Assembly (NCBI GenBank): GCA_016187395.1
Contig: JACPJV010000006.1
Span: 62,345 to 126,344 of the forward strand
Direction: 5' to 3'
Origin: Candidatus Aenigmatarchaeota archaeon
Lineage (GTDB): Archaea; Aenigmatarchaeota; Aenigmatarchaeia; GW2011-AR5; JACRAC01
DNA: 64,000 nt
Shown here in pieces: positions 2,616 through 51,625 of the stretch. Every line of letters begins with the position of its first letter. Positions within the stretch are counted from its first letter, which is position 1. The notes beneath the pieces are model-generated. The model did no database searches. It was given only the letters and a program-made list of their open reading frames with translations, and had not been told where the DNA came from. Both the position numbers and the translations under genes were made by a program.

Positions 2616-2703
2616 GAAGGAATCTGGAGGGGAAATTTTAAATAAGAACAATCAGTATCTTGAATTTCGTCAGAGATTTATAGTTCTGAATCGTATATGT
2701 TAA

Positions 2704-9475: not shown

Positions 9476-9626
9476 TATAGTGATGCAAGGAATACAAGAA
9501 TGAGCAAAGCTCATTCTGTACAGCAGGAACTTCGTTCCTGCTTGTAAATCAGGATATAATATTTCCTTGCTCACTATATGTGAACCAACAAGTATCATAT
9601 CGGGATTATTTTGTTGCTTCACTATA
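9476..9626. repeat. MITE-like palindromic repeat element, copy B (~150 nt)
   Basis: Bounded by tatagtgatgcaaggaata ... tccttgctcactata and gtgaaccaa...ttg.ttcactata inverted repeats. ~85% identical over ~85 nt to 51529-51609. Contains nested hairpins aatgagcaaagctcatt and caggaacttcgttcctg. Confidence 0.65.
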
Positions 9627-13188: not shown

Positions 13189-14160
13189 ATGGACGACTAT
13201 GGAAATCTGAGCGTTGTTTTTGCTGTTATTATGTCCGTGATAATTCTGATAATCGCGGTTCCTGTGTTCTTGCGCGCCTCAAGCGCCGGCCTGAATGAAA
13301 CGAGAACAGACGTGGAACTGCCTGAAGCAGGACTTATAGAAATGAAGGGCAGGGATTCAAAGGTTACTTACACTATGAACGAGAATAACATAAAATACAG
13401 GGTTGATGCTGACCTGCAATTAAAATCTGAAAGGAACGAGCAGATAATTTTTGTTATAAGATTCAAGGGAATGGAGATTGCAGCTCCGTGCATATCCGCG
13501 GGGGGCTTTGCGGAAATCCCGTGCAGCCTTCCTTCAGATGGATCTGCCCACGATTTTCGAATAACAGCGGACTTTGAAGGCTCCTATTCCAGCATTCCTC
13601 CGATAATCAATCTTTCTGCCTACTCATCTACAAGCGAATGGCCAAAGGCTGCAGGCACGCAGGGCGTCCTGAATTTCGAGCCAGAGGGGCAGCAGTTTAT
13701 CGTCGGCCACTATTCTGCGTTTGTGGTTGAGAGGGCTCTGGCTGAAATAGAGACCAGAGTCATTGACGTACCGACCGGCCTGGCGAAATACAAGGTCACG
13801 GTGAAGTGCGTGAATGACTTTTCCAAGATAATCAAGATGGATATAGGCGAAAAGCAGAGGGTGCCTTTTTACTGCAACGGAGAGATAAGCGTAGAAATAC
13901 CAGGGGAAAACAAGATAAGAATAGCGACGAGGAACGGAGACGAATGGCATGGAACAGGGGAGAAGATAGACGTATACGCATGGAGGGTTTTTGACGGATT
14001 TGACTGCGGAGGATTCACTGATGCATACTCACCGTTTTCAGTCTCAGCTGCGCTGAGGGATGAGCAGTGCCTGAATCACTTTATAGACACGGAGATCATC
14101 CAGTCTCCTTTAGGAGATGGGTATGACAGCAATCTGGATTTGCTTCCACTGGTGGGATAG
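13189..14160 (+). CDS. membrane-anchored secreted protein (N-terminal TM helix; 323 aa)
   Basis: N-terminal hydrophobic helix VVFAVIMSVIILIIAVPVFL, then Cys-containing extracytoplasmic region. No known domain recognised. Confidence 0.4.
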   Translation: MDDYGNLSVVFAVIMSVIILIIAVPVFLRASSAGLNETRTDVELPEAGLIEMKGRDSKVTYTMNENNIKYRVDADLQLKSERNEQIIFVIRFKGMEIAAPCISAGGFAEIPCSLPSDGSAHDFRITADFEGSYSSIPPIINLSAYSSTSEWPKAAGTQGVLNFEPEGQQFIVGHYSAFVVERALAEIETRVIDVPTGLAKYKVTVKCVNDFSKIIKMDIGEKQRVPFYCNGEISVEIPGENKIRIATRNGDEWHGTGEKIDVYAWRVFDGFDCGGFTDAYSPFSVSAALRDEQCLNHFIDTEIIQSPLGDGYDSNLDLLPLVG

Positions 14161-14721
14161 ATGCAGCTAAACATGGCTTATAGTGCTATATTGTTTGTTG
14201 TTCTGGCAGCGATAGCGTTTGTTATAATGAGCAACACCTCCGTTTTAGCCAAGGACAAGCCTGACATTTACGGCAGCGGCATAGCGACTGTGCACGCATC
14301 ATTCCTGGCTTCAGAGCTGCCTCAATGCAGCAAAACCCCAAGCGGAGCTCTTTACAGGCTTTCAATAACAGTTGATGCGACGATAGAAGACCCCGGGAAA
14401 AGATCCGGAGATATAGTAATGCTTGCAGAGTATCCGGAGCTTAACGAAATAAAAATCCAGCCTCTTGCCGATTCAGTCAGCATGAACGACGGATTTATGC
14501 AGGGAATATTTCGGATAAATCTTGGCGGAAGCAACACTCCTGAAGAAGGCAACAGGATAAACGTGGCGTTCTTTTTTAGCGAGCCCTGCACGTATACTGA
14601 TACAGGCGTTTCAACTGGAGGGGGTTTTCCAGCGATAAGCCTCGGCAACTTCATAAATACCTGTCGCGACTCGTTTTTGGGAATGCAAAGAATAGATTTG
14701 CCTGCTATCAGCTGCCCTTGA
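14161..14721 (+). CDS. membrane-anchored secreted protein (186 aa)
   Basis: N-terminal TM helix (AILFVVLAAIAFVIMS). Start codon abuts stop of previous gene. Confidence 0.4.
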   Translation: MQLNMAYSAILFVVLAAIAFVIMSNTSVLAKDKPDIYGSGIATVHASFLASELPQCSKTPSGALYRLSITVDATIEDPGKRSGDIVMLAEYPELNEIKIQPLADSVSMNDGFMQGIFRINLGGSNTPEEGNRINVAFFFSEPCTYTDTGVSTGGGFPAISLGNFINTCRDSFLGMQRIDLPAISCP

Positions 14722-14733: not shown

Positions 14734-14904
14734 ATGGGAATCAAAGAGATGGCTGCAGGAAGGCCTGCGGAAATAGCGCTGATAATACTGGTTTTGCTGA
14801 TAATCATAGTGATAGTTACGGGCCTGATAACTTCTCCGGGAGGCGCAACTGACATACGCGATTTTATCGTGTCGATAACCCGCGGTGCGACTAACTTTGG
14901 CTGA
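14734..14904 (+). CDS. small single-pass membrane protein (~56 aa)
   Basis: MGIKEMAAGRPAEIALIILVLLIIIVIVTGL... Below the ORF-track cutoff. Confidence 0.3.
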   Translation: MGIKEMAAGRPAEIALIILVLLIIIVIVTGLITSPGGATDIRDFIVSITRGATNFG

Positions 14905-15677: not shown

Positions 15678-16082
15678 TCAGCATTCACAGGAGCCGTAGG
15701 TTTCTCTTGTTGCAGGATGCTCCCTGACTTTTCTGCAGAAGTCAAGCCAGTTATCTATCACTGGCCTGAATGATTGCAAGTAATCGCAGGCATTGCCGCG
15801 AACTACGCAGCCGCCGCCGCAGTTTTCCAGGCATACCAGGTACGCGCCTTCCTCAACGCCATAAAGATTCTCGCAGGCATTAAGCCATGAAGGATATTCC
15901 CTTGCAAGGTTTATACTTGCACGATCCGGATTGCTGCATATGGCTGCGCAGCCGCTCCGGAATTCCTTCTCAAGAGTGGCGCGGTCGAAGAAAGACAGGC
16001 CGCTGAGAAGGAAATAGGTCAAGACCGCTATCACCAGCGCTGCCATTACAATTATGACCACTCCTTTTATTGCCAATGCCAT
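15678..16082 (-). CDS. Cys-rich secreted protein with archaeal class-III (type IV pilin-like) signal-peptide candidate
   Basis: Internal start MALAIKG|VVIIVMAALVIAVLTYFLL: K-G followed by ~20 hydrophobic residues fits the prepilin-peptidase pattern. Mature part has 11 Cys. Immediately downstream of the giant gene. Confidence 0.4.
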   Translation of the reverse strand: MALAIKGVVIIVMAALVIAVLTYFLLSGLSFFDRATLEKEFRSGCAAICSNPDRASINLAREYPSWLNACENLYGVEEGAYLVCLENCGGGCVVRGNACDYLQSFRPVIDNWLDFCRKVREHPATRETYGSCEC

Positions 16083-16120
16083 CGAAACACACCTCCCGAT
16101 TCGCTGCATCCACTTGCACG

Positions 16121-19100
16121 CTAGCTTCTCTTATATTCAATCCACAGCCTTATTTTTTCGCGGTTGATTAATATTACTATCACCACGATGATCACTATTG
16201 CAATCACTGCTGCTAATGCCCATGGAAACTCTCCCTGCGCAGCTCCTCCTGCGCCCTGATCTCCTGCCAGCCCTATCCTGGTGCCGTATACGCGGAGCTC
16301 AAATATCTTCACTATGCTCCTGTCTGCACGCTCTGCCTCATCTATGTTTATGCGCACCCATCTTGCGGTTGCAGGCCCGAAGTATGTGACGTTCCAGTCA
16401 CGCTCGTATTGAGCATTATCTACGTCAGCGACCTCGAGGTATGTGCTGTCGTCTTTGCTGACCTCTATTGAAAAGGACCTGGGCCTGTCTATCTGGGAGT
16501 ATATTCCTATACCATTCACAGACATTTCCTGCGACAGGTCAACCTTTATCCATGCCGGAAGGGGAGATTCCCAGAACGTGGAAGGGTCGCTGTCTATCGC
16601 AAGCGTAGGCCCAAAGCCTGCTGCAGATGACTTGGCAAAGGCATTTGCTATTGAAAGCGAAAGACCTGCAGGCTCATAAAAATCTTGGGCTCCGCCGCAT
16701 ATGATTGTTCCCGTCTCTGAGCATATCAGAGGCTCGCTGTACGTGCTTCCGTAAACGCCTATTGAAATAGATTTTGGATCTGAATCTGAAAAGTCTGCCT
16801 GATATGACATGCTTTCTGCATAGAGCCTTTGAGACTGCACGCCGCTTACAGATATTACAGTATAATTTCCTCCTGTCCTGACTGCCTGGACGCTTGCAAC
16901 ATACTTCTGTTTCACAGGATCAAATACGCACGTGGATTTTTCTATGGTTATGCCGCATCCTTCCTGTGAAGGCGTGCATGCAGGCATCGTGTTTTCCCTG
17001 CAGCATACTGTTCCTGCAGTGCACGTGCCTTCTCTCTGCTCTCTGTCCAGGCACAGCTGTACATTGTCCGTGCATGACGGCAGGCATGTATATGCGCAGC
17101 CGCCTCCTGGGGGTGTAACGACAAGCTGCTGCACAGCGCTGGTGGATGAGGAGCCTGCGCTATCCCGGGCAGACACGTACCATGTATACGATCCCGGGTT
17201 CTTGCCAACCGCAGCTGTGCAGGAATATCCTGCTCCGTCACGCGACATTGTACACAGCTTTTCACTGCATATTGAGTCAAGGCACGCTTCTGCGCGGGTT
17301 ATGTTGTCTGATTCCGCATCCCTAAGCTCTGCGTAGAATTTCACGCTGCCTCCCTGCTGAACAGAAGAAGGCTCTGCCCTTGCGTTTGCTATCGCAGGTG
17401 CCAGGTTTCCCTGCCCTTCTGTGATTATTAAAATGCTCTGCTTCTGTTCGCTCTGGTTGTTTATAACTGTAAGCGTCGTGAGCGAGGTTCTCTTTGGCAG
17501 GGATATCTTTGCAACAAGGGAATTTCCTGTCTGGATTGATGCCTGAATCTGCCCTGCACCGCACTGCTTTGTTGAAGATCCTGCCTGCAAGGTTGCAGAT
17601 GCGTTGCTTGTGCAGGATATTGAATATGAATCTGAGAAGCCTGTGTTTGTTATTGTAATCTCATGATCGACTGGCGCTGACACGGTTTTCTGCTCTGATG
17701 ATGGCTGCAACAGAAAGTCGTAGTTGTTTACAGCAACAAAAACAGATCCCAGGAATGTGCTGGTGGTTCCTGCTTTTGCTATGACACATAGCCAGTAGCT
17801 CTTGTCAGCAAAGCTGGCGGTGTTCCAGGCTGCTGTGTAGGTTTTTTTGTCTCCGGATCCTTCAGCCTGCATGGAGAACAGAGGTGCGCCTGCGCACTGC
17901 CGGGAGTTTGCAGAAACAGAGAAGTCAATTTCATCAAAGGTTCCGCGTATGACTGCTTCCACCGAGGCTGTGCCTGAAAGAACTGCCCCTTCCCGGGGCG
18001 ACACTATGCTGGTTTCAGGCGCTGTTACTGTGAAGCTCATTCCTACATTCTTTGATGAAAACTCAGGAGCCTGTTCGCATTCCTGCTCAGAGATTGCCGA
18101 GGCAAGGTCGCCGTGAACCGTGCATGAATTGATTGTCCACGTCCCTGCGCTGTCGAGGAATATTGGTATTTCTACTGGTGTTTCACCTGATCTGAACAGT
18201 GTGCAGGAGGATTTTGGCTCGACCATTGTCCCATCACTTCGCGCAACCTCGCATGAAGCGAAACCGCGGTAATCCTCTCCAAACGAATTTGCCACAGACA
18301 TGGATATCTTTGCTGTTTCACCGACGAATGTACCGGGCGGTACTATGCCCAATATCTCCAGCCCTGGAATGCCTATGCAGCTTGTCGCGATGCGCGCCTG
18401 TATCCTTTCTTCTAACGACTCAGTGTCTTCAAGCAGACTTTCAATTGAGCTCTTTGACGGATTCAGCAAGGCTGCGTCCAGCAATTGCAAATGATCTTCG
18501 CGCCATGCGCAGGCTTCCTTCAGTATGTCCGCGCACACGCGCTCGCCTTCGCTGATCCTTCTTGCGACAACAGACGGGCAGTTTTGCACAATAGAGCTCC
18601 AGCGGCTTGCTGCAGATGCCAGCCTTTCTAAGTTATAGAACGGGCACGCGAAGCTGTAATTTACAGATCTATACGACTGTATATTTGTTCCTGTTACGTC
18701 CTCGCCTCTTATGTAGAAATATATATCATCTTCTACGTCTGTCGGGCACGCGACTTCATTATTATAATTGTCCCCGAACACTCCCCTTCCTGTCGGATCT
18801 AATTCAGCAGCACAATCCTTCAAAGTTCCTGAAATGCCTGTTCTCGTTATGCCGCACTGCGACGCAAGGCACTGCTCGGGGGTTGCGCCGCGCCTGCACG
18901 CCCTTACCTCCTGGCCAAAAAGCGTCTGCTCCAGTGCAATATCAACAGACATTTCTGTGGTATTGTCCTTTGGCTGCATGCATGTATAATAGTCAAAACC
19001 GGCGCCGCTTCCAAAGACCGGGCATTTGAATATGCCTGCGTTAAAGCTGCAGTCTGCTGCGCAGCTCTGGCTAGTCTCGCCACGCTCAGGCTCGCACACG

Positions 19101-22100
19101 TAATTGCCGCACCCTTTCACTGGTATGGTTATTTCTGCAACGCCCCGGACTCCTCCGCCAAGCTCTGCTACTACAAACACCTTATGATCGCCGTCAACTG
19201 CAGTGCGCGACGGCGTTATGAAGAGCTCCATCTGCAAAGATTCCTGCGGCCCGAACTCTGCATTTATCTCCTGCAGAAAGTCGTTGCCGAATACAAACTC
19301 AGCTTCCCATCCGTCAGGAACATCAAATTCGACGTTCACGGGGCTTTGTGCCGCGAACTCCGGCGGATTTTCATTCTTCACGGTTATATCAAAGGCGACA
19401 GGCACACGCGGCCTTGCAGGAAGCGAATACCCTTCTGCAAGCTGCCAGCTAACAGAAGGGCGCAGGCTCTGGCTTATCACGTAGGATGAGCAGGCTTGCC
19501 CGCTTATTCCTGTGGTTTTTGCTGTAACGCACCAGTTTATTGAATCGCTTATCTGCGCGCCTGGCGGGGACGCAACTTCTACTTTGAACGACTGGCTGTC
19601 TCCTGAGGCTCCCTTTCTCTGCAACGATACTTCACTGGTATCTGCAGATATGCTCCATCCTGCAGGAATTTCTGACAGGCTTATATCCAATGTCAATGCC
19701 GTGTCTGCCAGGTTGTCTATGCGCACGTCATATTCTGCAGCTTCGCCTGCAGGGGCAAGCATGCGGCCGGGCACGATGGTTATGAGAGGAGCTCCTGGCT
19801 GGTATGCGTAGACCAGAGCTTCATAGTCTGATATCTGCGACAGCGATGAGGAATAAATAGCTCCGGATTCCGACCAGTATATGCGATTTGAATAAACTGC
19901 AATTGAGCTGATATGAGGCCTTCCTATTGCGATTGGAACATCTCCATTACTGCCGCCAGAAAGCGGGTCTGCCGGAGTGCCGTCGCCCGCTATCTTCACG
20001 ATTTTTCCCTTGCCTGTGCCTCCGTTAACTGCTGCGTAAATATCATCGCCAGCCACAAACACGTCATTTATTCCAGCCTTGTTTTTGTATAGAATTTCCT
20101 CAGAGCCGCCGTCTTTGGGGATGCGCTTTACTGAATCGTCCTCGGTATAATATACGAAACGGCTGTCCAGCGCAAGGCCTTTTGCTGACGCACTTGCAAA
20201 CAGGCAATTTGCACCCGCACAGTTCTGTGCGTTGGCATTCAAAACAACGCGCTTTATCTTTCCTCCGTCCAGCCAATATGCATTCTGGTTATCAACTGCC
20301 ACGTGGGTTGCATTGCCGATTCCTCTTGCCATGTCAGAGGGCGTGAATGCATTTTTTGCAGTCTTGCTTATTGCCCCGGCTGCTGCGAAGTATATATTAC
20401 CTGAATCAAGAGCTATGCCGCCCGGCAAGCTGCCTATTGAATAGTCTATCCCTGTTGCTCCGCCAGTGCTTACAGAGCGGAGCCTTCCTTCAGTTGTTGT
20501 GTAATATATGAAATTGTTCTGATCTGTTGCGATGAACAGCGCGTCTGCGGCTATCTCGCTGCTTACAGGTTCAGGCAGCGATTCTGATATCATCGCATAG
20601 CCTGTGTACGTGCCTATGGAGCCGCCTGTCGGGAATACGTTCATGATAAGCTCTTGCTGACCCTTGCTCAGGTCTACGGCGCCAACAGGCTCGCCTGCAG
20701 GCGTTTCAAAGTCAGACGTCCACCCTGAGCCAGGGGCTTCGCCTTGCAGCGCAAATAAATATGGCGCGCAGCCTTGCGGCACAGAGCTGTTTACAACAAG
20801 CGGGTATCCCCATTCGCGGAGCGAGGACTGACTGGCCGATGAAATCTTTGCGCGTATGTCTACGTCCGCATTATTCAGTGACTGGTGGTTCGTCTGCTTC
20901 ACTGTGGAGAATCCCTTGTTGTTAGTTATCCTCACAGATATAGGCCCTGGAGACGAGGACTGCATTGGAACCGCGACGGTGCTGTCAGGATTGACGACCA
21001 CGCTGGCAGCAGGCTCTATGGAAGCGCCTTCTCCTGATATTGCAACGAATCCTGCGCCTGCCTGCGGAGAAAGAACTTCAAGCAGGTATTCAGTAGAGCT
21101 GCTCTGGATTGCAGGCTCTGTGATTGTCAATGCAAACTCAGCTGGCACGCCTTCCGGTGAGCATACCGCGCTTTGGCTAGTAATTGCAGGAGGAGGCCTG
21201 TCCTGCGCTGAAATAACCTCAAGCCCGGGAGAGCTTACTTCAGAGGCAGGCTTTGCCAGGACAAGGTAATTGCCTGGCATTGGCACGACAAACCTGTGCG
21301 TGAACACTCCCTCTGCTCCTGTGAAGTTTGCCTGAATCGTGGAATTCTCAACTACTGTGCCGTTCTGGTCAATGACAATAATGTCAACGTCAGCAGTCTC
21401 AGGCACGATCGCGCCTTCAATTGTGTGGTATTCTGAAGGCAGGGGAAGCACGTGATCTAATTTGCCGACAAGCACCTGCCTTGTGCGGTCGTGCACGCCC
21501 AGAGAGCCGACAGTGTCAAGCTGCTCGCATTTGCCTTCAAAACCTGCGCCAAGCCCGGGCTGCCTGACTGACGAGCGCCGATATATGCTTTCGCCGCGCG
21601 TCAGCAGTTCGCGCATCTGGAAGAAGAACTGGGTCTGGTAGGAGCGCGCAAGCATCTCGTAAGGCCTTGCCCGCGTATCGCGAGTGCCGTAAACAGGCTG
21701 AGGCGGCAGCGGAGAGCCGGCAGGATAGCGCGTGCCGAACTGCAGCTCTGCTTTGTTCTGTAGCAGAGGGTCGAATGTCGCGGGCGTGTCTACAGACGGG
21801 TCGTATGCTAAAGGTTCGTCGGAGAATGAAACTTCAGAAGGCGCTGCAGAAATTGCGTAGAATACCGCAGCAGCTGTTCCTATTGCTATAAGTTCTCCAC
21901 TGCTGTCGTACGCAAACAGAGCTGCTTCTGCAGTTTCAGGGACGAATCCTGGCGGAGAAGTTCCTGAACATGTATTGCTCGTTTCATCTCCAAACAGTTC
22001 TTGAAAACATGCCTCTACTACGGTTTCGTCCTGCACCATTATGGCCTGGTATGAATAACTATCTACGCCAGTCACAGGCAGCCATTCTGCACGTATGGAG

Positions 22101-25100
22101 ACCGTTTCTTCACTTGTTCTGATATCGCGAAAAGCGCTAAGCCTTGTTATTTCTATTTTGCCTAAAGTTTCTTCGCCTAATATTGTCTTCGGAATTCCAT
22201 ACGGCATTGGGTCTACGCTAAAACTTGCCGCAGGCTCGCTCTGTCCGTCCGGAATGATATCTACCATGATCATCGTTGGATTTGATGTCTCGCCTGTTTC
22301 GATTACAGCAGTATTCTCTTCATCAGACATGTATATCGTTTCCGAATACCACTGATACCCCCCGGGATCGTTATAGTATACAACTGCGCTTGCTCCGCCT
22401 GGCTGGCCCCAGTAGAGATTTCTTATGATTATCCTGTCGCTGCCTTCCTCTGTGAATTCAACGCTTCCTAAAACTGAATTATACTTCCTATGAGCTTTTC
22501 CTGTATCCATTCCCAGCCTTGTTGTGGCTAATCTCTCATTTCCGCGCAGCGCGGTTATTTCTATGAGAAGCCTCTCAGGATCGCCGAGCGGAAGCTCCTC
22601 CAGAATTAACTGACCCTGTATCCATCTTTCATTCACGATCTGCGTATAATCCCGATGAATCCCTTTCGGTGTGCTCGTGCTCCATGAAAGATAGTGAACC
22701 TCGTAGCTGTCTGCCTGAGGGTGCGCTCCCCATTTGAAATCCAAATCATACCATTTTCCTGTTAGATCTCTGATAGTAATTCCTTTTTCATAGGTAATCT
22801 TGGTGATTTCAACATTTGGCCACTGCAATCCAGGAGGTGCTGGTTTGGCTGGCGGTACAGGTGGTGACGCAAGGCATGACTTCCACGCATCCCAGTAAGA
22901 CATTATGCCAGGAACGTATTCGCGGGTTTCTGCAGGAGCATCAGCACCTGTCCAGTCACATCCTCCGGAATTGTATCCTGCCAGGGAATTCCGAACGCTG
23001 CCTTCGCAGGCTTCCTTGCCGCTGACAGCTCCGCTAATCAGGGCATCAAAATATCTTACGCCGCATTTTATGTTATCTGCCGGTTCTCCCGGAAAAACGC
23101 CAATATCCTTGCAATACGTATCCCATGTAAGAGATATGGCCGGGTCATTGACTATCTGCATCAGGCCGTGTGCGTTTTTCGGGCTAATTGCATACGGGTT
23201 CCAGCTGCTTTCCCAGCTTATGATGGCTGCTATCAATGCTTTCTGTTCTGTCTCGTTTGTCACAACTTCTTTTAGATTATTCGCATTTTTCAATGCCTCT
23301 TCAATTGCTGTCTCGTAATTATTATAATCACCCCTCTGTTTTGTGCATACCTGCGAAGCAGGAACCCTACTGACTGGCGTGCCGCTGACCTGCGTAAGCT
23401 CCAATTCTGCTGCCCTGCACGTGCGTGTATCCGCTCCTTTGCCTGTAAGGAACGTGTCCATTTCGCCTGCAATCTGCTTTACTTTCTGGTTGTCCAGCGC
23501 TTCAGCAGCTGCGTTGCACTGGTCTACTTTGCCTGACAATGCTCTCCAGTCAGCCCTGTCCTTAAGCCGGTTTATGCATGAATTGAACTGGGTGCATTTT
23601 ATCTTCAGCTCGCTTATTGCGACGCTTTTGAGGTCCCTGGTGCAGTAATACGGATCTGTCAAGGGCTTTGTTGTGCTTACATGGTTTAGGTCGTCGCAGG
23701 AGATGCGGCATTCTCCTTTCACTTCATTTTCTTCTACCTTAAGGCATAACCGCGTATTGTGATCTCTCTGAAAGTCAGGGCTCAGGCATACTTCACACGT
23801 AAGCGTTCCTTCCTGCTCCAGATCTGCAAAAACCTTGTTTTTCTCTATTCCAGTCTGCGTTTCTACCTTAATCCTTTCTCTAACAACAGCAGTGTCTGAT
23901 ATTATCTTTGCGATCTCGCAGCGCTCCCTGTCTCCTCCTGTCACGACTTTCTCTGCCTTGCCTTTGCCTTCTACTGTCTGTCCTTCTCTAGGTGATTGAT
24001 CCAAAGGCACGCATTCCCTGACAACCCTTCCGTCGCTTTTCCAGACCACGTGCGTGCCCCTTGCTTCGACGCATTTCAGGCAATCGCTGCCGAGCTTTGC
24101 AAATTCAGCAGCACTCCACTGCTTTGACAACTCAGACTGGCTTAATCCGCATGAGTTGGCAGAAGAATATTGCTCTGTCGTGATCTCGACCTCGCCGGCA
24201 CTGCATGAATCTGATGACAAGACGCATCTTCCCAGGCCTGTTTTTGGAATGTTTCCACCGCCTGGCAGAGGAACGTAGACGCCGCTGACTCCGGATATCT
24301 GGCCGTTCAATTCCTTGATCGGCGTTGCGCACCACTTGCCCGGAACGATCGGGAATGTAGATGAACACTGCTCTCTGGACGTGACTGATGATTTTCCTTG
24401 CGGGCATATCGGATCTGTCCTTACTGTCTGACCATTTTCAATATACTCACATTTTTTATTGAGAATTGATCCGTCATCGTCTCTGTCGCATATCGGAGTT
24501 GTTACTCTCCTGTCTGTATTATCCACACACGCTATTCCGAACTTATCGACGCTGCTTAGGCACGATGCCAAGGCTCTTGCATTATCCGGGCTTCTTGTCA
24601 GGCATTCGTCGCATGTCTGGGATTGCGACGCTATGGCGCGCTGCGCTGCAGTCCTTCTTTGCGCAGCTTCGTCCTGGATCTGCTCGACCATGCCTGCCAT
24701 TGTGTCCATGAATGACCAGAAGCCTGCGTTTGCCCAGTAAATGTCAAACTTAGACGGCTTCTGGCACGATTCTGCCGCAAGGCTGTAATCTGCAAGGTCG
24801 TAAAGCTGAGTGCTGTGAGCCATTGGCAGGGAGTCGAAGGTCCACCACGTGAATATAATGAACCTGATCTTGCAGAACTGGAAATTGATTCCAAAGAATT
24901 CCTTGATAGGAGTGTTGGCTGTGCAATATTGGGTAGGCACGAGGTCTTTCTGCTCTTGCTGGATCTCTCCTACCGCTACTTTTTTATCCAATTCAAGGTT
25001 ATGGTTTCGCTGCGCGTCTTCTATGGCCTGTATGTAGAGGAAACCGAAAACGCCCTGGAACAGCCTTTGCATGGCTCCGCCGCCACCGAATGCTTCTGTG

Positions 25101-27037
25101 AGCCATCCGTGCACAGAAGATGCGAGAATCGTGGCAAATAATTCATTCTGGTTTATAGATGCAGGGACGTACATATCAACAGTAGGTGGTGCCGGCACAA
25201 CTCCCAGCTTGTCCCTGGACCAGTTGTTCACGCTGTCCAGCGCTTTTGAAAAGCCTTCCAGCATCGTGCCTGATGCAGGCAGCAGCGCCCACGTAGGCTT
25301 GTTGCTGCAGTCATTTCCGATGCAGGGCTCGCACGTGCCGTCTATCTGGTATATGCATAAAGGCTTTGTGCCGCCGCTGCTTTTGAATGTGCGCCTGCTG
25401 ATCGCGCCCTTGACTTCAATTTCCTCGCCTGCGAATGTTGCTGTTGGGGTTACGTTGAAATCTGCTATGAGCATCGTATCAGGAAACGGGTCTATTTCCC
25501 TTAGAACAGGCGAGCCTGTGTAATTGAATTCCAGCCGCAGGACGCGCGCATTCACAGGCACAGACGAGAAATCAAAATATTGCACAAACTCCTTTTGCCC
25601 TGTGCCAAGCTTCTTGTTTACTTCGAATGTCTTGAGTCCTGCGGTAATCTTTGTCAGCGTGATATTATCATTCCTATCCCATGTTTCTAATGAAAGGCCG
25701 AAATGCGGATAATCCTGATCAAATTCTATTGTGCAAAATGCCTGCTTTGCTTTGGCAGACGTTGCGTTAGGCTGCTGATCTGCTTCCTGACCAGATGCCT
25801 CTCTTCCTGGCGGAGCTGTTCCTGGCTGGCCTGTGCCAGGGTTTGGTATAAGGGAGGGTGTTGCAAACTGCGGTAGTGGTGCAGATTCATCGGACGGTGC
25901 AAACTGGAAATAGGAATCCCTGTCCAGGTCAACCAAATGCCACGGGTTCTGGAATGAAATTCCCTGCTGCCTGGAGCGCGGCTCTGCAGGCGGCGCACAC
26001 TGTATGCTCCTGATGCTGATGGGTTTCGGCCCTTCTGTTGGCGGGGAGAATTGCGGCGGCTCGGGCAACAAAGGCTGCTCGCATCTCAGCGTGTCAGGCA
26101 TTGTATAGAATCTGGATAATGTATCATAGGACTGCAGGGATGGCTGGGGTATATATCCCGGCGTGCCCGGATAAAGAGGAGGGTAACTGCTTCCCAACGT
26201 CTGCTGCAAAACCCCGAATATGCGAAGCTGGCTCGGGTAGGGAACAATCCTGTACTCTATCGGAAGCGTGAAATCATTTTGTTCAATTACACTTTTTGGT
26301 ATGAATACGTTTGCTGAAAAAGGGCCTTCGCCGAACGCGGTTGTGCCGCTCACAGAGCCTGGCTGGCCAAATCCCGCGCTGCCAAGCCCGAAGCCGCTGA
26401 GACCTGACTGGGCCGCGCCCAGCTGTCCTGATCCCCTTACATTAACCTGCAATGCCTGCCCTCCGAACCACAGGCCGCGCACTGTTGCAATGTAATAATT
26501 CTGCCCTCCGACCGGCCTGCATTCTTTTTCCACAGGAAGGATGAAGAATAGTCCGAGATCGCGTATGTCATTCCATATGTCGTCTTCAAATTTGTAGCAA
26601 GCGCAAACCAGGGAGGATGTTCCGCACGCCACCTCTGGAAACGGCTCGGCATCTGTGACATACCCTCCGCTGCTGACCTGGTTCGCAGGCGTGCACGTCC
26701 CTCCTCCCTGCGGATAAACGTTTTTCTTGCAGAAGGAGTTGCACGCCAGGTCGCGGCTTATCTCGCAGTAACAGAAAGGCTTTTCCCTTGCGCACAGGGT
26801 AGCATCAGGGTGAAGCTGCTTTGCACCCACGTAATCCCTGGCATCGCTGCAGGAGCCGCCAACACCATAGAGCTGCTGGCAGCCTGTGCCGCACTTTTCG
26901 TCTCCAGGCGGCTGGGCGGCTGGCTGGGCGTATATTGGGGTGCCTAGAAGGAAAAATGCTAATATGACTAACAGCAGCGCTTTTGCAAAACGCATAGTAT
27001 TATTAGAAACCGGGTATAAAAATAGGTTTTCAGACAA
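16121..27037 (-). CDS. giant cell-surface protein (3,638 aa) with SLT lytic-transglycosylase domain, YWTD-like beta-propeller, CARDB/Ig-like repeats, discoidin (F5/8 type C) domain and C-terminal TM anchor
   Basis: Uninterrupted 10.9-kb ORF. N-terminal signal peptide (MRFAKALLLVILAFFLLGTPIYA). Cys-rich N-terminal modules. SLT signature ES-x-WNPYAIS-x5-GLMQ near aa 1275-1295 (nt ~22870-23290). Repeated YWTD/NHL-like blades ending RIYWSE (aa ~2165-2400). FGPTLAIDSDPSTFWESP discoidin domain (aa ~3460-3586). C-terminal hydrophobic helix then basic tail REKIRLWIEYKRS. Confidence 0.85.
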   Translation of the reverse strand: MSENLFLYPVSNNTMRFAKALLLVILAFFLLGTPIYAQPAAQPPGDEKCGTGCQQLYGVGGSCSDARDYVGAKQLHPDATLCAREKPFCYCEISRDLACNSFCKKNVYPQGGGTCTPANQVSSGGYVTDAEPFPEVACGTSSLVCACYKFEDDIWNDIRDLGLFFILPVEKECRPVGGQNYYIATVRGLWFGGQALQVNVRGSGQLGAAQSGLSGFGLGSAGFGQPGSVSGTTAFGEGPFSANVFIPKSVIEQNDFTLPIEYRIVPYPSQLRIFGVLQQTLGSSYPPLYPGTPGYIPQPSLQSYDTLSRFYTMPDTLRCEQPLLPEPPQFSPPTEGPKPISIRSIQCAPPAEPRSRQQGISFQNPWHLVDLDRDSYFQFAPSDESAPLPQFATPSLIPNPGTGQPGTAPPGREASGQEADQQPNATSAKAKQAFCTIEFDQDYPHFGLSLETWDRNDNITLTKITAGLKTFEVNKKLGTGQKEFVQYFDFSSVPVNARVLRLEFNYTGSPVLREIDPFPDTMLIADFNVTPTATFAGEEIEVKGAISRRTFKSSGGTKPLCIYQIDGTCEPCIGNDCSNKPTWALLPASGTMLEGFSKALDSVNNWSRDKLGVVPAPPTVDMYVPASINQNELFATILASSVHGWLTEAFGGGGAMQRLFQGVFGFLYIQAIEDAQRNHNLELDKKVAVGEIQQEQKDLVPTQYCTANTPIKEFFGINFQFCKIRFIIFTWWTFDSLPMAHSTQLYDLADYSLAAESCQKPSKFDIYWANAGFWSFMDTMAGMVEQIQDEAAQRRTAAQRAIASQSQTCDECLTRSPDNARALASCLSSVDKFGIACVDNTDRRVTTPICDRDDDGSILNKKCEYIENGQTVRTDPICPQGKSSVTSREQCSSTFPIVPGKWCATPIKELNGQISGVSGVYVPLPGGGNIPKTGLGRCVLSSDSCSAGEVEITTEQYSSANSCGLSQSELSKQWSAAEFAKLGSDCLKCVEARGTHVVWKSDGRVVRECVPLDQSPREGQTVEGKGKAEKVVTGGDRERCEIAKIISDTAVVRERIKVETQTGIEKNKVFADLEQEGTLTCEVCLSPDFQRDHNTRLCLKVEENEVKGECRISCDDLNHVSTTKPLTDPYYCTRDLKSVAISELKIKCTQFNSCINRLKDRADWRALSGKVDQCNAAAEALDNQKVKQIAGEMDTFLTGKGADTRTCRAAELELTQVSGTPVSRVPASQVCTKQRGDYNNYETAIEEALKNANNLKEVVTNETEQKALIAAIISWESSWNPYAISPKNAHGLMQIVNDPAISLTWDTYCKDIGVFPGEPADNIKCGVRYFDALISGAVSGKEACEGSVRNSLAGYNSGGCDWTGADAPAETREYVPGIMSYWDAWKSCLASPPVPPAKPAPPGLQWPNVEITKITYEKGITIRDLTGKWYDLDFKWGAHPQADSYEVHYLSWSTSTPKGIHRDYTQIVNERWIQGQLILEELPLGDPERLLIEITALRGNERLATTRLGMDTGKAHRKYNSVLGSVEFTEEGSDRIIIRNLYWGQPGGASAVVYYNDPGGYQWYSETIYMSDEENTAVIETGETSNPTMIMVDIIPDGQSEPAASFSVDPMPYGIPKTILGEETLGKIEITRLSAFRDIRTSEETVSIRAEWLPVTGVDSYSYQAIMVQDETVVEACFQELFGDETSNTCSGTSPPGFVPETAEAALFAYDSSGELIAIGTAAAVFYAISAAPSEVSFSDEPLAYDPSVDTPATFDPLLQNKAELQFGTRYPAGSPLPPQPVYGTRDTRARPYEMLARSYQTQFFFQMRELLTRGESIYRRSSVRQPGLGAGFEGKCEQLDTVGSLGVHDRTRQVLVGKLDHVLPLPSEYHTIEGAIVPETADVDIIVIDQNGTVVENSTIQANFTGAEGVFTHRFVVPMPGNYLVLAKPASEVSSPGLEVISAQDRPPPAITSQSAVCSPEGVPAEFALTITEPAIQSSSTEYLLEVLSPQAGAGFVAISGEGASIEPAASVVVNPDSTVAVPMQSSSPGPISVRITNNKGFSTVKQTNHQSLNNADVDIRAKISSASQSSLREWGYPLVVNSSVPQGCAPYLFALQGEAPGSGWTSDFETPAGEPVGAVDLSKGQQELIMNVFPTGGSIGTYTGYAMISESLPEPVSSEIAADALFIATDQNNFIYYTTTEGRLRSVSTGGATGIDYSIGSLPGGIALDSGNIYFAAAGAISKTAKNAFTPSDMARGIGNATHVAVDNQNAYWLDGGKIKRVVLNANAQNCAGANCLFASASAKGLALDSRFVYYTEDDSVKRIPKDGGSEEILYKNKAGINDVFVAGDDIYAAVNGGTGKGKIVKIAGDGTPADPLSGGSNGDVPIAIGRPHISSIAVYSNRIYWSESGAIYSSSLSQISDYEALVYAYQPGAPLITIVPGRMLAPAGEAAEYDVRIDNLADTALTLDISLSEIPAGWSISADTSEVSLQRKGASGDSQSFKVEVASPPGAQISDSINWCVTAKTTGISGQACSSYVISQSLRPSVSWQLAEGYSLPARPRVPVAFDITVKNENPPEFAAQSPVNVEFDVPDGWEAEFVFGNDFLQEINAEFGPQESLQMELFITPSRTAVDGDHKVFVVAELGGGVRGVAEITIPVKGCGNYVCEPERGETSQSCAADCSFNAGIFKCPVFGSGAGFDYYTCMQPKDNTTEMSVDIALEQTLFGQEVRACRRGATPEQCLASQCGITRTGISGTLKDCAAELDPTGRGVFGDNYNNEVACPTDVEDDIYFYIRGEDVTGTNIQSYRSVNYSFACPFYNLERLASAASRWSSIVQNCPSVVARRISEGERVCADILKEACAWREDHLQLLDAALLNPSKSSIESLLEDTESLEERIQARIATSCIGIPGLEILGIVPPGTFVGETAKISMSVANSFGEDYRGFASCEVARSDGTMVEPKSSCTLFRSGETPVEIPIFLDSAGTWTINSCTVHGDLASAISEQECEQAPEFSSKNVGMSFTVTAPETSIVSPREGAVLSGTASVEAVIRGTFDEIDFSVSANSRQCAGAPLFSMQAEGSGDKKTYTAAWNTASFADKSYWLCVIAKAGTTSTFLGSVFVAVNNYDFLLQPSSEQKTVSAPVDHEITITNTGFSDSYSISCTSNASATLQAGSSTKQCGAGQIQASIQTGNSLVAKISLPKRTSLTTLTVINNQSEQKQSILIITEGQGNLAPAIANARAEPSSVQQGGSVKFYAELRDAESDNITRAEACLDSICSEKLCTMSRDGAGYSCTAAVGKNPGSYTWYVSARDSAGSSSTSAVQQLVVTPPGGGCAYTCLPSCTDNVQLCLDREQREGTCTAGTVCCRENTMPACTPSQEGCGITIEKSTCVFDPVKQKYVASVQAVRTGGNYTVISVSGVQSQRLYAESMSYQADFSDSDPKSISIGVYGSTYSEPLICSETGTIICGGAQDFYEPAGLSLSIANAFAKSSAAGFGPTLAIDSDPSTFWESPLPAWIKVDLSQEMSVNGIGIYSQIDRPRSFSIEVSKDDSTYLEVADVDNAQYERDWNVTYFGPATARWVRINIDEAERADRSIVKIFELRVYGTRIGLAGDQGAGGAAQGEFPWALAAVIAIVIIVVIVILINREKIRLWIEYKRS

Positions 27038-27105: not shown

Positions 27106-28041
27106 TTATCTGGCGTCATGGAGTCTTGCTTGCGATGTTGAATCATCAGAATAGCTGTCCCATATTTCACGGTATGGGTTGTATAGAATGCTGAACTTGT
27201 GCGGAAGCTCTCCGCCACATGGATTTGAGGTTCTTTCACTGTATGGGATTTGCGGCATGACAAACCAGCATTCATTGCTTAAAGCTTCTATTTCTTCAAG
27301 TTTCAGATAGTCTTCGGCAGAAAATACCCCTCTGCCGGGGTCGAAGACCTTGTCCTTGTATCTCACAATTCCATGATTATAAGCAGGGACATCTGGTTCG
27401 CCCACCGCTACTCTAACTCTCACACCACAAAAAAGCGGGACTGGGAAATATTTCCTAAAATTTTCCCGCCTTTTTTCCATAGGATCGCTCATGGAAGAAT
27501 ATTCTACTTCCATGGCGCTTGGAAACGGATAGACATACGCAAAAGTTCCCTCGGGGTAAAATTTAAGTCCATCATACCCAAGCATATCCAGGCATACCTG
27601 GCCGCAGATCCCTCTATTTCCCTGGGAGCGATGTTGAATATGAAAATTCCTGGCTGCTGCCATCTCTAGCTGGAGTTCAGCATGCTCCACAGCTTCCTTT
27701 ACCTCTTTTGAGGTAAGTGCTTCGTAAAGATTCCCTTCGGATAATGCTTCTGGAAAAAGTCTTTCTCTATGAATGAGTGCACTGGAGAATTCATCTATCA
27801 CTATATCAGCACATTCAAAATGCTGCCTGGCTTCGGCAACTTCAGGCACGCTATCCGCGGTTTCCATTGCAGGGAGCGCAGGCGGCGGTGTTCTATTCCT
27901 GCGCCAGCCGCTATAAATCTCGCTGGCAAATCCTGCCGTCCATAGCGCTGCTACTACTGCCGCTGCGCCCAGAAGAATCCTTCTTCCACGGAACCTTTCA
28001 GGCTCTATTCTTTCAACGTGCATAAAATTATGAAGCCGCAA
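27106..28041 (-). CDS. type-II membrane-anchored protein (311 aa), hypothetical
   Basis: N-terminal TM helix (ILLGAAAVVAALWTAGFAS), then soluble domain. Sits between the pilin-like genes and the giant gene. Confidence 0.4.
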   Translation of the reverse strand: MRLHNFMHVERIEPERFRGRRILLGAAAVVAALWTAGFASEIYSGWRRNRTPPPALPAMETADSVPEVAEARQHFECADIVIDEFSSALIHRERLFPEALSEGNLYEALTSKEVKEAVEHAELQLEMAAARNFHIQHRSQGNRGICGQVCLDMLGYDGLKFYPEGTFAYVYPFPSAMEVEYSSMSDPMEKRRENFRKYFPVPLFCGVRVRVAVGEPDVPAYNHGIVRYKDKVFDPGRGVFSAEDYLKLEEIEALSNECWFVMPQIPYSERTSNPCGGELPHKFSILYNPYREIWDSYSDDSTSQARLHDAR

Positions 28042-28438: not shown

Positions 28439-28834
28439 TCACAACATCTCTTTTATTTCCTCCCTGCTCAGGAGGTTGCGGTGCTTCTGGTCGTCCCAGA
28501 ACTTGCGGACCGCAAAATAGAAGTATTCGTAGAGTGCAGGAATGTCCTTTGCGAGAATTACCACGCCCCTGTCCATGATTTCCGCGCGGATGTAGAGCGG
28601 CAGGTTTTCAAAAATACGCACATCGTACTTTCCGCCAAGCCTCTGCCACACCCTGCTCAGGAGCGCATTCCTGTCTTTGCACTCCGGCGCAACTATCGTG
28701 ACATCTATGTCGCTTCTGGGAGTCGCCTCTCCTGTTGCGTGCGAGCCGAAAAGCATCACTGCCATGATTTCCCTATCCTTTTCCAGAAACGCGAAATCCT
28801 TCTTCAGGATACTCACAATCTTTTTTTCAGCCAT
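28439..28834 (-). CDS. minimal nucleotidyltransferase (MNT, MntA-like antitoxin)
   Basis: GSHATGEATPRSDIDV (GS...D.D) nucleotidyltransferase motif. Overlaps the HEPN gene by 22 nt. Confidence 0.7.
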   Translation of the reverse strand: MAEKKIVSILKKDFAFLEKDREIMAVMLFGSHATGEATPRSDIDVTIVAPECKDRNALLSRVWQRLGGKYDVRIFENLPLYIRAEIMDRGVVILAKDIPALYEYFYFAVRKFWDDQKHRNLLSREEIKEML

Positions 28835-29244
28835 GACTTCACCTCTTTTTCGAACGATTTGAACTCCGGTGAGATTTTTTTGATGGAGCTGAAAGCAGTT
28901 TCCTCGTCAACTGTATTGTACCTGTGAATGAGCACATTCCTCAGGCCATTGGAATCCCTCAGTATGGCCGCTGTTTTTCCTCCTGCAATATTCTTCTCCT
29001 TAAGAAATGTTATGTTGCTGTAGTCGTCCTTTGGAAACGCGCCTTCATCTTTTACAATCATGGCGCAGATGTCTATAGCAGCTTCTGAAAGCTCCTGGAA
29101 TGCCTTGAATATTGCCAGCCGCGTCTTCTCGTTAGCCTCGTCCTTTAGCCATTCTGAAATCTCTGAATACCTCTTTTCCATAAGCTCCAGTTTCTCTTTG
29201 TACCTCGTTGCCCTTGCAGCATCCATGCTATCAATAGTAGCCAT
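28813..29244 (-). CDS. HEPN-domain protein (HepT-like toxin; DUF86)
   Basis: R-x4-H-R-Y motif (RNVLIHRY) near C-terminus. Paired with the MNT gene. Confidence 0.65.
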   Translation of the reverse strand: MATIDSMDAARATRYKEKLELMEKRYSEISEWLKDEANEKTRLAIFKAFQELSEAAIDICAMIVKDEGAFPKDDYSNITFLKEKNIAGGKTAAILRDSNGLRNVLIHRYNTVDEETAFSSIKKISPEFKSFEKEVKSWLKKRL

Positions 29245-29363
29245 GCTTTTTAATATACTAAGGTGGCACTCTATAACAATTCTTTTCAGGCTCTAATTAC
29301 AGGAGGAACTTCGTTCCTCCTTGTATGGGAAAGCACAAATATCATGTTCCGTTTTATTTGTGG

Positions 29364-29410
29364 TTTCACTATATAGTGCTGCAAGGAATAATCATTTTCT
29401 TGTTTCACTC
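29364..29410. repeat. short palindromic repeat, copy C of the 'cactatatagtgctgcaaggaata...ttcttgtttcac' family
   Basis: tttcactatatagtgctgcaaggaataatcattttcttgtttcac immediately 3' of the TadC-like gene. Preceded at 29299-29321 by hairpin caggaggaacttcgttcctcc. Confidence 0.55.
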
Positions 29411-31428: not shown

Positions 31429-31501
31429 CCTTAATAATAATTGATTTTGGGGGTATATAGATTGTCTGGCAGAAATATACTATTCGAATTTCCATCCTCT
31501 C

Positions 31502-51510: not shown

Positions 51511-51609
51511 TATAGTCATGCAAGGAATAAATCAGGATATAATACTTCCTTGCTGACTATATGTGAACCAAATAGTATCATATCCTGATTATTTATTTGG
51601 TTCACTATA
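51511..51609. repeat. MITE-like palindromic repeat element, copy E (~100 nt)
   Basis: tatagtcatgcaaggaata...ttccttgctgactatatgtgaaccaaatagtatcatatcctgattatttatttggttcactata. Homologous to 9548-9626. Lies immediately 3' of gene 51626..52444. Confidence 0.65.
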
Positions 51610-51625
51610 AGTACATATGACGATG

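Follow-up and report, generated by a model that had tools for sequence, protein, structure and literature searches.

The 64,000-nucleotide stretch of DNA analysed here (the window) encodes, on its minus strand, a predicted giant surface protein of 3,624 amino acids which contains a lytic transglycosylase domain. Sequence and structure comparisons confirm that amino acids 1225–1383 (22847..23323, minus strand) constitute a genuine family-1 SLT/GH23 domain with intact catalytic motifs and predicted activity. New here is that the SLT domain lies within a cassette which the only detectable homologue (P0003) of the surrounding scaffold lacks, and that it belongs to a different phylum and an apparently different scaffold from those of the published DPANN SLT proteins.

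The open reading frame of 3,638 codons given in the preliminary description (16121..27037, minus strand) exists when counted from a TTG at 27037, which adds 14 codons to those that follow an ATG at 26995. The ATG is more likely to be the start of the giant gene (16121..26995, minus strand; stop codon 16121–16123), and the 3,624 amino acid product which it specifies has the same sequence as NCBI MBI2583204.1, a protein of a Candidatus Aenigmarchaeota MAG. A TATA-like box (TTTTTATA; 27015..27022, minus strand), recognized from the sequence only, has its 3' end 19 nt upstream of this ATG, a position which suggests that the transcript may be leaderless or near-leaderless, of the archaeal kind. The genes on both sides of the giant gene in the window are archaeal (aIF2-alpha, PAC2, Nre, DUF1512 and a FlaI-like ATPase) and, together with the NCBI label, uphold the archaeal origin assumed earlier.

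Several other features of the neighbourhood deserve mention. The FlaI-like ATPase gene and T2SSF-like platform genes are situated 2.4–8.6 kb upstream, and this proximity is the sole ground for supposing a functional link to them. Small N-terminally hydrophobic neighbours (13189–14160, 14161–14721, ~14734–14900 and 15678–16109) were considered as archaeal type IV pilins and rejected for want of Pfam support, including Class_IIIsignal; the pilin-like look of these products is an impression. The window also encodes a reverse transcriptase with an Rfam RT-16 RNA. A DGR targeting the giant gene was likewise rejected, since the sole TR/VR pair puts the variable repeat in ORF 55408–56463.

The preliminary description had noted an SLT catalytic signature at about amino acids 1275–1295 (near nt 23200). 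This motif, ESSWNPYAISPKNAHGLMQ, is located at amino acids 1276–1294 when numbered from the TTG and 1262–1280 when numbered from the ATG (nt 23212..23156). The region around it (ca. 1250–1390) gives significant SLT/GH23 matches: Pfam SLT (PF01464) reaches 45.6 bits where its gathering score is 21.3 (E=6e-12; amino acids 1262–1359, TTG numbering), the NCBIfam models for MltC, MltF, Slt70 and EmtA match the same residues, and phmmer against the PDB finds MltC (E=2.7e-5) with the ES and GLMQ motifs aligned. Given these matches the signature is no chance resemblance. The SLT motifs are, in ATG numbering, E1262-S, G1277-L-M-Q1280, N1308..G1312, A-G-Y1341-N-S-G1344 and E1356-T-R-E-Y1360-V, and all four catalytic motifs of the family-1 lytic transglycosylases are present. 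Similarity extends across the whole domain, ETREYV included, to a bacterial Sel1-SLT protein (35% identity).

In an alignment of the nearest SLT domains E1262-S1263 is invariant (122/122 relatives), and none of the invariant columns (E, S, S, A, G, Q, Y, G) is altered in the archaeal domain. Since the sole full-length homologue is without an SLT domain, conservation of the catalytic glutamate, a check called for in the preliminary description, could be assessed on domain relatives only; among these it is complete. The structure model, built with the 122-sequence alignment (single-sequence AF2 of amino acids 1180–1420 gave a pLDDT of 40.7), predicts with high confidence a lysozyme-like alpha-helical GH23 fold. 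It matches Slt70 and MltE, the two enzymes with which comparison had been suggested, as well as MltC and LtgA, and the codon of the predicted catalytic residue, Glu1262 (23210..23212, minus strand), corresponds to the C-terminal end of model helix 29–44.

The nearest SLT domains, defined as the best 150 matches among 1.84 billion representatives, are 33–48% identical to the archaeal domain and occur in small proteins whose contigs are of ordinary bacterial or phage-like character. They include no clear nearest clade that would point to a donor lineage. One might suppose that the GH23 module acts, as a hydrolase or in lysozyme-like fashion, on a beta-1,4-GlcNAc polymer other than murein, such as chitin, chito-oligosaccharides, or the glycans of an archaeal envelope or S-layer. 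We consider this rather improbable: the family-1 motif set (ES, GLMQ, AYNxG, ETRxYV) is exact, the best matches, whether by sequence or by structure, are without exception murein transglycosylases, and the best 150 domains resemble those of small SLT proteins of the ordinary kind in bacteria or phages. The six that were scanned are all Pfam SLT, and 128 of the 149 matches listed have the pattern E[ST]...G[LIVM]MQ.

The predicted topology would place this domain outside the cell. A Sec-type signal peptide (amino acids 1–23, MRFAKALLLVILAFFLLGTPIYA, followed by QP; 26927..26995, minus strand) is recognizable from its hydropathy and n/h/c-region pattern, and a C-terminal transmembrane helix (amino acids 3590–3612) precedes a basic cytoplasmic tail, EKIRLWIEYKRS (16124..16228, minus strand for helix and tail). 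Both the signal peptide and the anchor with its tail had been claimed before, and the hydropathy plot, with an N-terminal hydrophobic signal-like segment and one transmembrane segment, agrees. The tail motif is kept in P0003 as RLRLWWSYVRG. A PGF-CTERM sorting signal is absent, the C-terminus (GEFPWALAAV...) having no PGF motif and matching no CTERM model in NCBIfam. The giant protein is predicted to be type-I anchored on the cell surface of this DPANN archaeon, a member of the Aenigmarchaeota, with about 3,560 residues projecting outward.

The scaffold on which the domain is carried is shared with P0003 (MEM7817286.1), a 3,049 amino acid "discoidin domain-containing protein" of the Candidatus Aenigmatarchaeota MAG GCA_039090635.1. 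The N-terminus of P0003 is cut by the contig end, and a tandem paralogue of 3,437 amino acids is found beside it. By BLASTP P0003 and the giant protein are 31% identical over amino acids 1757–3623 of the latter (~1,870 residues) and 24–26% identical over 479–799; phmmer extends the N-terminal homology to residue 960. Like the giant protein, P0003 has propeller-like, Cys-rich, Ig-like and discoidin modules, a transmembrane anchor, the tail motif and a small Cys-rich downstream gene. In our window the latter (15678..16109, minus strand) begins 11 nt past the stop of the giant gene and specifies a 143 amino acid protein with an N-terminal transmembrane segment and a Cys-rich domain; it is 40% identical to the product of the gene following P0003 (in L001), so that the pairing of giant and small gene is conserved. 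Taken together, the two collinear proteins appear to define a previously undescribed discoidin-anchored surface-protein scaffold of the Aenigmarchaeota. An exhaustive HMMER search with amino acids 690–1889 gave no giant SLT protein and no SLT match of more than 1,055 amino acids in the best 150, the one giant found being P0003, which is SLT-less. No relatives were found in GTDB species-representative genomes or JGI metagenome contigs, and k-mer-indexed protein searches with the whole protein or a profile returned the protein itself, one weak SLT match, or discoidin-only matches.

Most of the modules named in the preliminary description are recognizable in this scaffold. Its first block (amino acids 479–960; 24116..25561, minus strand), conserved with P0003, gave no match to a known domain. 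Amino acids ~2150–2395 (19811..20548, minus strand), conserved in P0003 and in the second paralogue, probably form a six-bladed YWTD/NHL-like beta-propeller, with six recognizable blade motifs of the phi-Y-phi-x-(D/E)-like type. The Pfam models Ldl_recept_b and NHL do not match this region, but a three-sequence profile of amino acids ~2136–2405 matches, in the PDB, the YWTD propellers of LRP2 (E=3e-13) and LRP6 (2e-8), and the NHL propellers of PknD and Pizza6 (1e-8 to 3e-6; PknD 3e-6), in keeping with the YWTD-like propeller originally proposed. The Ig/CARDB-like repeats fared less evenly: an NPCBM_assoc/NEW3 (CARDB-like) beta-sandwich (amino acids 2548–2611; 19163..19354, minus strand) exceeds the Pfam threshold, with a second matched stretch reported, and the Ig-like Big_7 (amino acids 2993–3067; 17795..18019, minus strand) is borderline, its 23.7 bits falling just short of the 24.1 cutoff. 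The discoidin, or F5_F8 type C, carbohydrate-binding domain (amino acids 3456–3555; 16331..16630, minus strand) exceeds its thresholds in the Pfam scan (56.3 bits versus 28.2; PF22633, 48 bits versus 27.8); it is membrane-proximal, about 35 residues before the anchor, and conserved in P0003. The N-terminal Cys enrichment is real (amino acids 1–200) and recurs at 800–1400 and 2600–3400. Self-BLASTP revealed no internal sequence repeats. For the remaining ~2,500 residues PDB sequence searches gave nothing significant.

Comparison with P0003 delimits a lineage-specific cassette of 796 amino acids (961–1756; 21728..24115, minus strand), in which a Cys-rich segment and the SLT domain are accompanied by three beta-rich modules at amino acids 1395–1745 that are FN3-like by eye. 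P0003 has in its place 382 unrelated residues, helix-rich by eye. The SLT region is therefore cassette-like, present in the giant protein and absent from P0003. As the source is a MAG and the homologue is without the cassette, we considered an assembly or binning artefact, in which an SLT fragment of bacterial origin had been inserted into an archaeal ORF, or a contig from a bacterium had been assigned to the archaeal bin. The G+C content of the cassette (0.46–0.49), set against 0.50–0.57 in the flanking scaffold, might be read in the same sense, but the average of the whole window is the same (~0.46), and the part richer in G+C is the scaffold; for the same reason base composition is not diagnostic of horizontal transfer, and that argument was rejected. 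Furthermore, the 10.9-kb reading frame is open across both cassette junctions, archaeal marker genes flank the giant gene on the same contig, and no closely resembling bacterial source was found, the closest bacterial match among those listed being 48% identical. Archaeal genes on both sides, together with a scaffold homologue found only in an Aenigmatarchaeota MAG, exclude a binned-in bacterial gene, and an artefact of any of these kinds is extremely unlikely.

The absence of the whole cassette from the sole scaffold homologue also bears on whether the domain does catalytic work at all. Its chief use might be adhesion, as a murein "grip" with little or no catalytic activity, or it might be an evolutionary passenger of no great importance. 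That it is buried in the middle of the protein, away from the distal tip, would accord with this, and so would the asparagines that replace two otherwise highly conserved residues, glycine at 1274 and, in the GLMQLMP motif, proline at 1283. Retention of all invariant and catalytic residues would not be expected of a decaying or purely binding domain, and the SLT fold is predicted with high confidence; we regard the grip or passenger as quite unlikely.

From the identity of the domain we infer an enzymatic activity, a substrate, a bacterial partner and a biological role for the giant protein. Our preferred reading, which we hold to be reasonably probable, is that of a contact-dependent adhesin-enzyme which nicks bacterial peptidoglycan. 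The lectin and propeller-like modules would keep the archaeon attached to a bacterial cell, and Glu1262 of the SLT module, as the single acid/base catalyst, would cleave the beta-1,4 MurNAc-GlcNAc bond to yield 1,6-anhydroMurNAc. In consequence a bacterium, be it host, prey or competitor, might have its peptidoglycan locally opened or thinned or, alternatively, muropeptides might be released from cell-wall debris. Several observations count against this reading. No peptidoglycan-binding modules (LysM, SPOR, PG_binding, SH3b) were recognized by Pfam next to the SLT domain; about 70% of the protein lacks a domain assignable by Pfam or PDB searches; and, since the closest homologue manages without it, the SLT domain is not essential to the core role of the scaffold. 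Lastly, we know of no host for any member of the Aenigmarchaeota, nor did we find one in the literature that was searched.

The preliminary description had offered pseudomurein as an alternative target, which would be that of a methanogen host. By established chemistry, pseudomurein has beta-1,3 linkages and is resistant to lysozyme, its known lysins are endoisopeptidases, and its N-acetyl-L-talosaminuronic acid bears a carboxylate at C6. As there is no C6-OH, the intramolecular 1,6-anhydro reaction of the lytic transglycosylases cannot occur. Pseudomurein is thus a chemically unlikely substrate, and we assign this alternative a very low probability, even though those DPANN with known hosts associate with other archaea. 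Pseudomurein has also been the speculated target of SLT-like regions in the Archaeovorins of Omnitrophota (bioRxiv 10.1101/2023.11.21.568195).

We raise more tentatively, as a possibility that we ourselves hold doubtful, that the Aenigmarchaeota include lineages living or preying on bacteria, and that a murein-cutting cassette of bacterial or phage derivation has been independently plugged into their lineage-specific adhesin scaffold. If this were true, presence of the cassette in one homologue and its absence from the other would mark it as a modular, swappable host-range or attack module, there would be convergence with the SLT giants of the Woese- and Pacearchaeota, and a handle would be gained for finding archaeon-on-bacterium symbioses. 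Because the SLT domain is small (about 160 amino acids) and well predicted, its action is directly testable on sacculi.

The bacterial family-1 lytic transglycosylases, among them MltC, Slt70 and MltE/EmtA of E. coli, Slt and MltF of P. aeruginosa and LtgA of Neisseria, are periplasmic or outer-membrane enzymes of 20–70 kDa which remodel the cell's own wall. By comparison, the archaeal SLT domain is one module of a 3,624 amino acid surface protein in an organism without murein, and it has none of the bacterial accessory domains (superhelical U/L domains, DUF3393, ABC-type binding domain). The SPEARE giant proteins of nanohaloarchaea combine serine protease, adhesion and restriction-endonuclease domains; neither a protease nor an endonuclease domain of this type was found in our protein by Pfam or NCBIfam. 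The Archaeovorins of Omnitrophota and further giants of predatory or episymbiotic ultrasmall bacteria (10,000–85,000 amino acids, with many enzymatic domains) are, like the giant protein, multi-domain proteins of small-celled, host-dependent organisms. Some of these bacterial proteins have SLT-like and discoidin domains and have been proposed to bind and degrade the cell wall of a partner (West-Roberts et al. 2023, bioRxiv 10.1101/2023.11.21.568195). They are, however, much larger, and the likeness seen here is one of domain types only. The predatory lysozymes and lytic transglycosylases of Bdellovibrio (DslA, Bd0314, and an MltA-like secreted lytic transglycosylase; PMC10127604) are small, secreted and bacterial, whereas ours is one module of an anchored archaeal giant.

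The nearest parallels are within the DPANN. SLT proteins were first noticed there by Rinke (2013) and Castelle (2015), and large extracellular examples of up to ~3,000 amino acids have been described in Woese- and Pacearchaeota by Castelle 2021 (PMC8204110, fam00969), Vigneron 2022 (PMC9723730) and Zhang 2024 (PMC10936187), with the same inference of bacterial cell-wall binding or degradation and possibly bacterial hosts; bacterial hosts for some DPANN are explicitly raised as an open question in PMC8204110. The earlier remark that the domain combination could not be placed in a described family consequently appears to hold for scaffold and phylum and not for the class of large extracellular SLT proteins, and, since both the notion and proteins of this class had already been published over 2013–2021, the value of the present case is incremental. 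To our knowledge every known DPANN host is an archaeon, and an intact, predicted surface-displayed murein-cleaving domain is one of rather few hints, at the level of sequence, that a partner may be bacterial. The giant protein shares with fam00969 its DPANN origin, very large size, predicted extracellular location and bacterial-type SLT/GH23 domain; it differs in coming from the Aenigmarchaeota, fam00969 being described as specific to Woese- and Pacearchaeota. As none of the best 150 matches to amino acids 690–1889 is a giant SLT protein, the scaffold, judged through this search, appears unrelated to fam00969 and its SLT domain was probably acquired independently of the Woese- and Pacearchaeota proteins. 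With the Aenigmarchaeota the bacterial-partner hypothesis would then reach a third phylum, and acquisition of the domain would look convergent.

The minus-strand ORF at 16121..27037 is confirmed, and no other in the region comes near it in length. The preliminary description gave it 3,638 codons, which is its length from the first in-frame start, a TTG; the ATG at nt 26995, 14 codons downstream, is the more likely start for three reasons: it coincides with the first residue of the Sec-type signal sequence (MRFAKALLLVILAFFLLGTPIYA, then QP); the end of a TATA-like element (TTTTTATA) is 19 nt away on its upstream side; and the 3,624 aa encoded from it match NCBI MBI2583204.1 ([quoted passage not shown]), which is borne on a 127-kb contig, at every residue. 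As had been noticed, there is a signal peptide and a C-terminal anchor (a hydrophobic helix at aa 3590-3612, then a 12-residue basic tail); hydropathy analysis found no other strongly hydrophobic segment, which points to a predicted ectodomain of ~3,560 aa tethered by its C-terminus. Archaeal marker genes flank the giant gene on both sides within the 64-kb window. These are aIF2-alpha, PAC2, the Nre N and C domains, DUF1512, class-I GluRS and an intein-interrupted FlaI/TadA-like ATPase; such neighbors and the NCBI label exclude a stray bacterial contig.

The SLT motif that drew attention to this protein (ESSWNPYAISPKNAHGLMQ) is located at aa 1262-1280 (nt 23212..23156). A significant SLT/GH23 match was found at ~1250-1390: Pfam SLT (PF01464) scores 45.6 bits (E=6e-12; gathering score 21.3), the NCBIfam models MltC, MltF, Slt70 and EmtA match the same residues, and phmmer against PDB sequences recovers MltC (E=2.7e-5), MltE and Slt70 in alignments that pair up both the catalytic Glu-Ser and GLMQ. 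A bacterial Sel1-SLT protein shows 35% identity across the entire domain, including ADNIKxG, AYNxG and ETREYV. When the archaeal domain was aligned with the 121 nearest domains, the column of the catalytic E1262 was invariant, and the archaeal sequence also kept every other invariant residue (S1263, S1271, A1275, G1277, Q1280, Y1341, G1344) and the near-invariant N1308, G1312, N1342, T1357 and Y1360. Among the highly conserved positions the archaeal domain deviates at just two, both non-catalytic, with N in place of G at 1274 and N in place of P at 1283. An AlphaFold2 model based on this alignment is confident (mean pLDDT 86.9, pTM 0.82) and was used in place of a single-sequence run (pLDDT 40.7). 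All 50 Foldseek matches listed from the PDB are GH23 enzymes. The model matches Slt70, MltE, MltC and LtgA, and after these come the GH23 chitinase (12.1), DslA of Bdellovibrio (11.2) and g-type lysozyme (10.8). In the model Glu1262 is at a helix C-terminus, the position expected for the catalytic Glu of lytic transglycosylases. Overall, the SLT domain is genuine and appears to be catalytically competent. Given these matches, the conserved Glu1262 and the model, neither of the two results that the preliminary description had named against itself (want of an SLT/GH23 match, loss of the Glu in homologs) was obtained. Domain identity, intact motifs, GH23 fold and outward topology support its core, a giant exported archaeal protein with an SLT domain.

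It is reasonable to infer a function from these sequence features. We think it fairly probable that the protein is a contact-dependent adhesin-enzyme acting on bacterial peptidoglycan, with activity, substrate and partner all deduced. The anchored ectodomain would bind its partner via lectin and propeller modules, and the SLT module would cut the MurNAc-(beta-1,4)-GlcNAc bonds as family-1 lytic transglycosylases do, using a single Glu and forming a 1,6-anhydro product. The good structural matches to GH23 chitinase and g-lysozyme would also suit a GlcNAc polymer other than murein, but the motifs as a set are those of lytic transglycosylases and we consider such a substrate unlikely. Pseudomurein, the other target first suggested, is highly improbable on chemical grounds, since its bonds are beta-1,3 and its talosaminuronic acid has no C6 hydroxyl.

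Sequence comparison yields almost no relatives of the giant protein. K-mer-indexed searches covering 5.8 billion clusters matched only the protein itself, and scans of GTDB representative genomes and JGI metagenome contigs gave no relatives. An exhaustive HMMER search with aa 690-1889 as query, covering 1.84 billion representative proteins, produced 378 matches at E<=1e-3; among the 150 listed, all were confined to the SLT-domain region except the protein itself and one scaffold relative, P0003 (MEM7817286.1; 3,049 aa), from another Ca. Aenigmatarchaeota MAG, its N-terminus cut by the contig end. The two are collinear, and BLASTP puts their identity at 31% for aa 1757-3623 and 24-26% for aa 479-799; the more sensitive phmmer carried the N-terminal homology on from aa 705 to aa 960. 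The C-terminal discoidin domain, TM helix and tail motif are common to both.

The SLT domain was not found in P0003. In sensitive pairwise alignment the homology ends at aa 960 and restarts at aa ~1757; the 796 residues between contain the SLT domain and its flanking modules, and 382 unrelated residues stand in their place in P0003. This break puts the SLT domain in what is, on alignment, a lineage-specific cassette within a conserved scaffold. A homolog that does without the domain might suggest a mainly binding or dispensable module, but the catalytic residues are fully conserved, which argues against decay and makes this quite unlikely. That the cassette is an assembly chimera is scarcely credible: the reading frame is unbroken over 10.9 kb, the GC content of the cassette is like that of the genome, and among the matches listed none from bacteria exceeds 48% identity. 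Since the cassette GC (0.46-0.49) equals the window average, the scaffold being GC-richer, composition is uninformative on recent transfer. The nearest SLT domains (33-48% identical) occur in small proteins on ordinary bacterial or phage-like contigs; none of the best 150 of 378 matches is longer than 1,055 aa, and no donor clade can be named from them.

Elsewhere in the protein, the reported discoidin (F5_F8 type C) domain is at aa 3456-3555, ~35 residues ahead of the membrane anchor. For the Ig/CARDB-like modules, one NPCBM_assoc/NEW3 (CARDB-like) match is above threshold but Big_7, Big_13 and PKD are borderline. The region described as YWTD-like (aa ~2150-2395) has no Pfam match. A profile of this region and its two homologs matches propellers of the YWTD type in LRP2 (E=3e-13) and LRP6 (2e-8) and also of the NHL type in PknD/Pizza6; a predicted six-bladed propeller is thus well supported, but its subclass is not. 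Self-BLASTP detected no internal repeats. About 70% of the sequence has no match in Pfam or PDB sequences, including aa 24-960, the Cys-rich segment ahead of the SLT domain, and three beta-rich modules after that domain, FN3-like by eye.

The giant gene is followed, 11 nt downstream, by a gene for a 143-aa Cys-rich membrane protein (15678-16109, -), and a homolog (40% identity) comes after the P0003 gene, the pairing being kept at that locus (L001). There a second giant gene lies in tandem (10373->19163 on JAWCPN010000003.1 of GCA_039090635.1; 3,437 aa, discoidin at the C-terminus), so giant surface-protein genes are arrayed in that MAG. This paralog resembles the window protein, at 23% identity, in the propeller and Ig region only, and no SLT domain occurs in its first 2,930 aa. 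In the window, 2.4-8.6 kb upstream of the giant gene and on the same strand (within 29410-35641, -), are the FlaI/TadA-like type IV filament ATPase, which is 1,379 aa long and whose intein carries LAGLIDADG and HTH modules, and a T2SSF-like membrane platform protein (672 aa), linked to the giant protein by proximity only. A HepT-like ribonuclease toxin (28813-29244, -; 79.6 bits) separates them from the giant-gene region. Small or medium proteins clustered around the giant gene, at 13189-14160, 14161-14721 and ~14734-14900 (+) and at 27106-28041 (-), like that at 15678-16109, each have one N-terminal hydrophobic segment; they look pilin- or anchor-like, for which Pfam gave no support. The nearby divergent 711-aa ORF (11011-13146, +) matches no family and opens with a hydrophobic, signal-like segment.

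The segment 55408-58131 (+) looks like a diversity-generating retroelement (DGR). Its 41-nt variable (56326-56366) and template (56847-56887) repeats differ at 5 positions, each an adenine in the copy adjacent to the reverse transcriptase; DGR repeats are usually longer, and the flanks show poor similarity. The variable copy is found ~100 nt ahead of the stop of a 351-aa ORF without family match (55408-56463), and the giant gene was accordingly rejected as target; an Rfam RT-16 RNA (56679-56849) and the reverse transcriptase ORF (56974-58131) belong to the putative element. Repeat families of 50-80 nt, 64-89% identical and with short palindromic hairpins in them, are scattered through the window (9492-9627, 29271-29374, 51528-51610 and 55429-55483, the last within ORF 55408-56463), with a further pair at 6976-7026 and 55564-55614; MITE-like elements, terminators and regulatory elements are all possible identities for these repeats. 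A protein with a GGDEF diguanylate-cyclase domain is encoded at 61643-62443 (+; 98.8 bits); c-di-GMP signalling proteins are uncommon in archaea. A 376-aa ORF (2704-3834, +) has a sub-threshold sigma-70 region 2/ECF sigma factor match (Pfam 21.5 bits vs 24; TIGR02937 23.3 vs 42.9); Rinke and colleagues are said to have reported bacterial-type sigma factors in DPANN in 2013. A tRNA at 49890-49957 (-) was found by Rfam (33 bits) and not by ARAGORN.

Large SLT proteins of DPANN were noted in three genomes by Rinke 2013 and Castelle 2015 (as cited in PMC8204110), and Castelle 2021 defined fam00969, whose proteins reach 3,000 aa, termed it Woese- and Pacearchaeota-specific, and proposed bacterial wall binding or degradation, with bacteria as possible hosts (PMC8204110). 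A "vampiristic" lifestyle was proposed for Woesearchaeota MAGs with "large lytic murein transglycosylase" genes (Vigneron 2022, PMC9723730), three ODZ DPANN MAGs carry a large SLT gene (Zhang 2024, PMC10936187), and the giant Archaeovorins of Omnitrophota contain SLT-like regions (bioRxiv 10.1101/2023.11.21.568195). For SLT proteins in Aenigmarchaeota no report was found in the literature searched, an absence which is not proof. The present protein would work like these large extracellular DPANN proteins. In contrast to fam00969, described from Woese- and Pacearchaeota, it comes from Aenigmarchaeota, the sole detectable relative of its scaffold is an SLT-less Aenigmatarchaeota protein, and no giant SLT protein is among the nearest matches of its domain (best 150 of 378). 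It is probably outside that family, being set apart by the description of fam00969 rather than by its sequences. The statement that the architecture belongs to no described family is half right, in that scaffold and phylum are new but the concept had already been described for DPANN.
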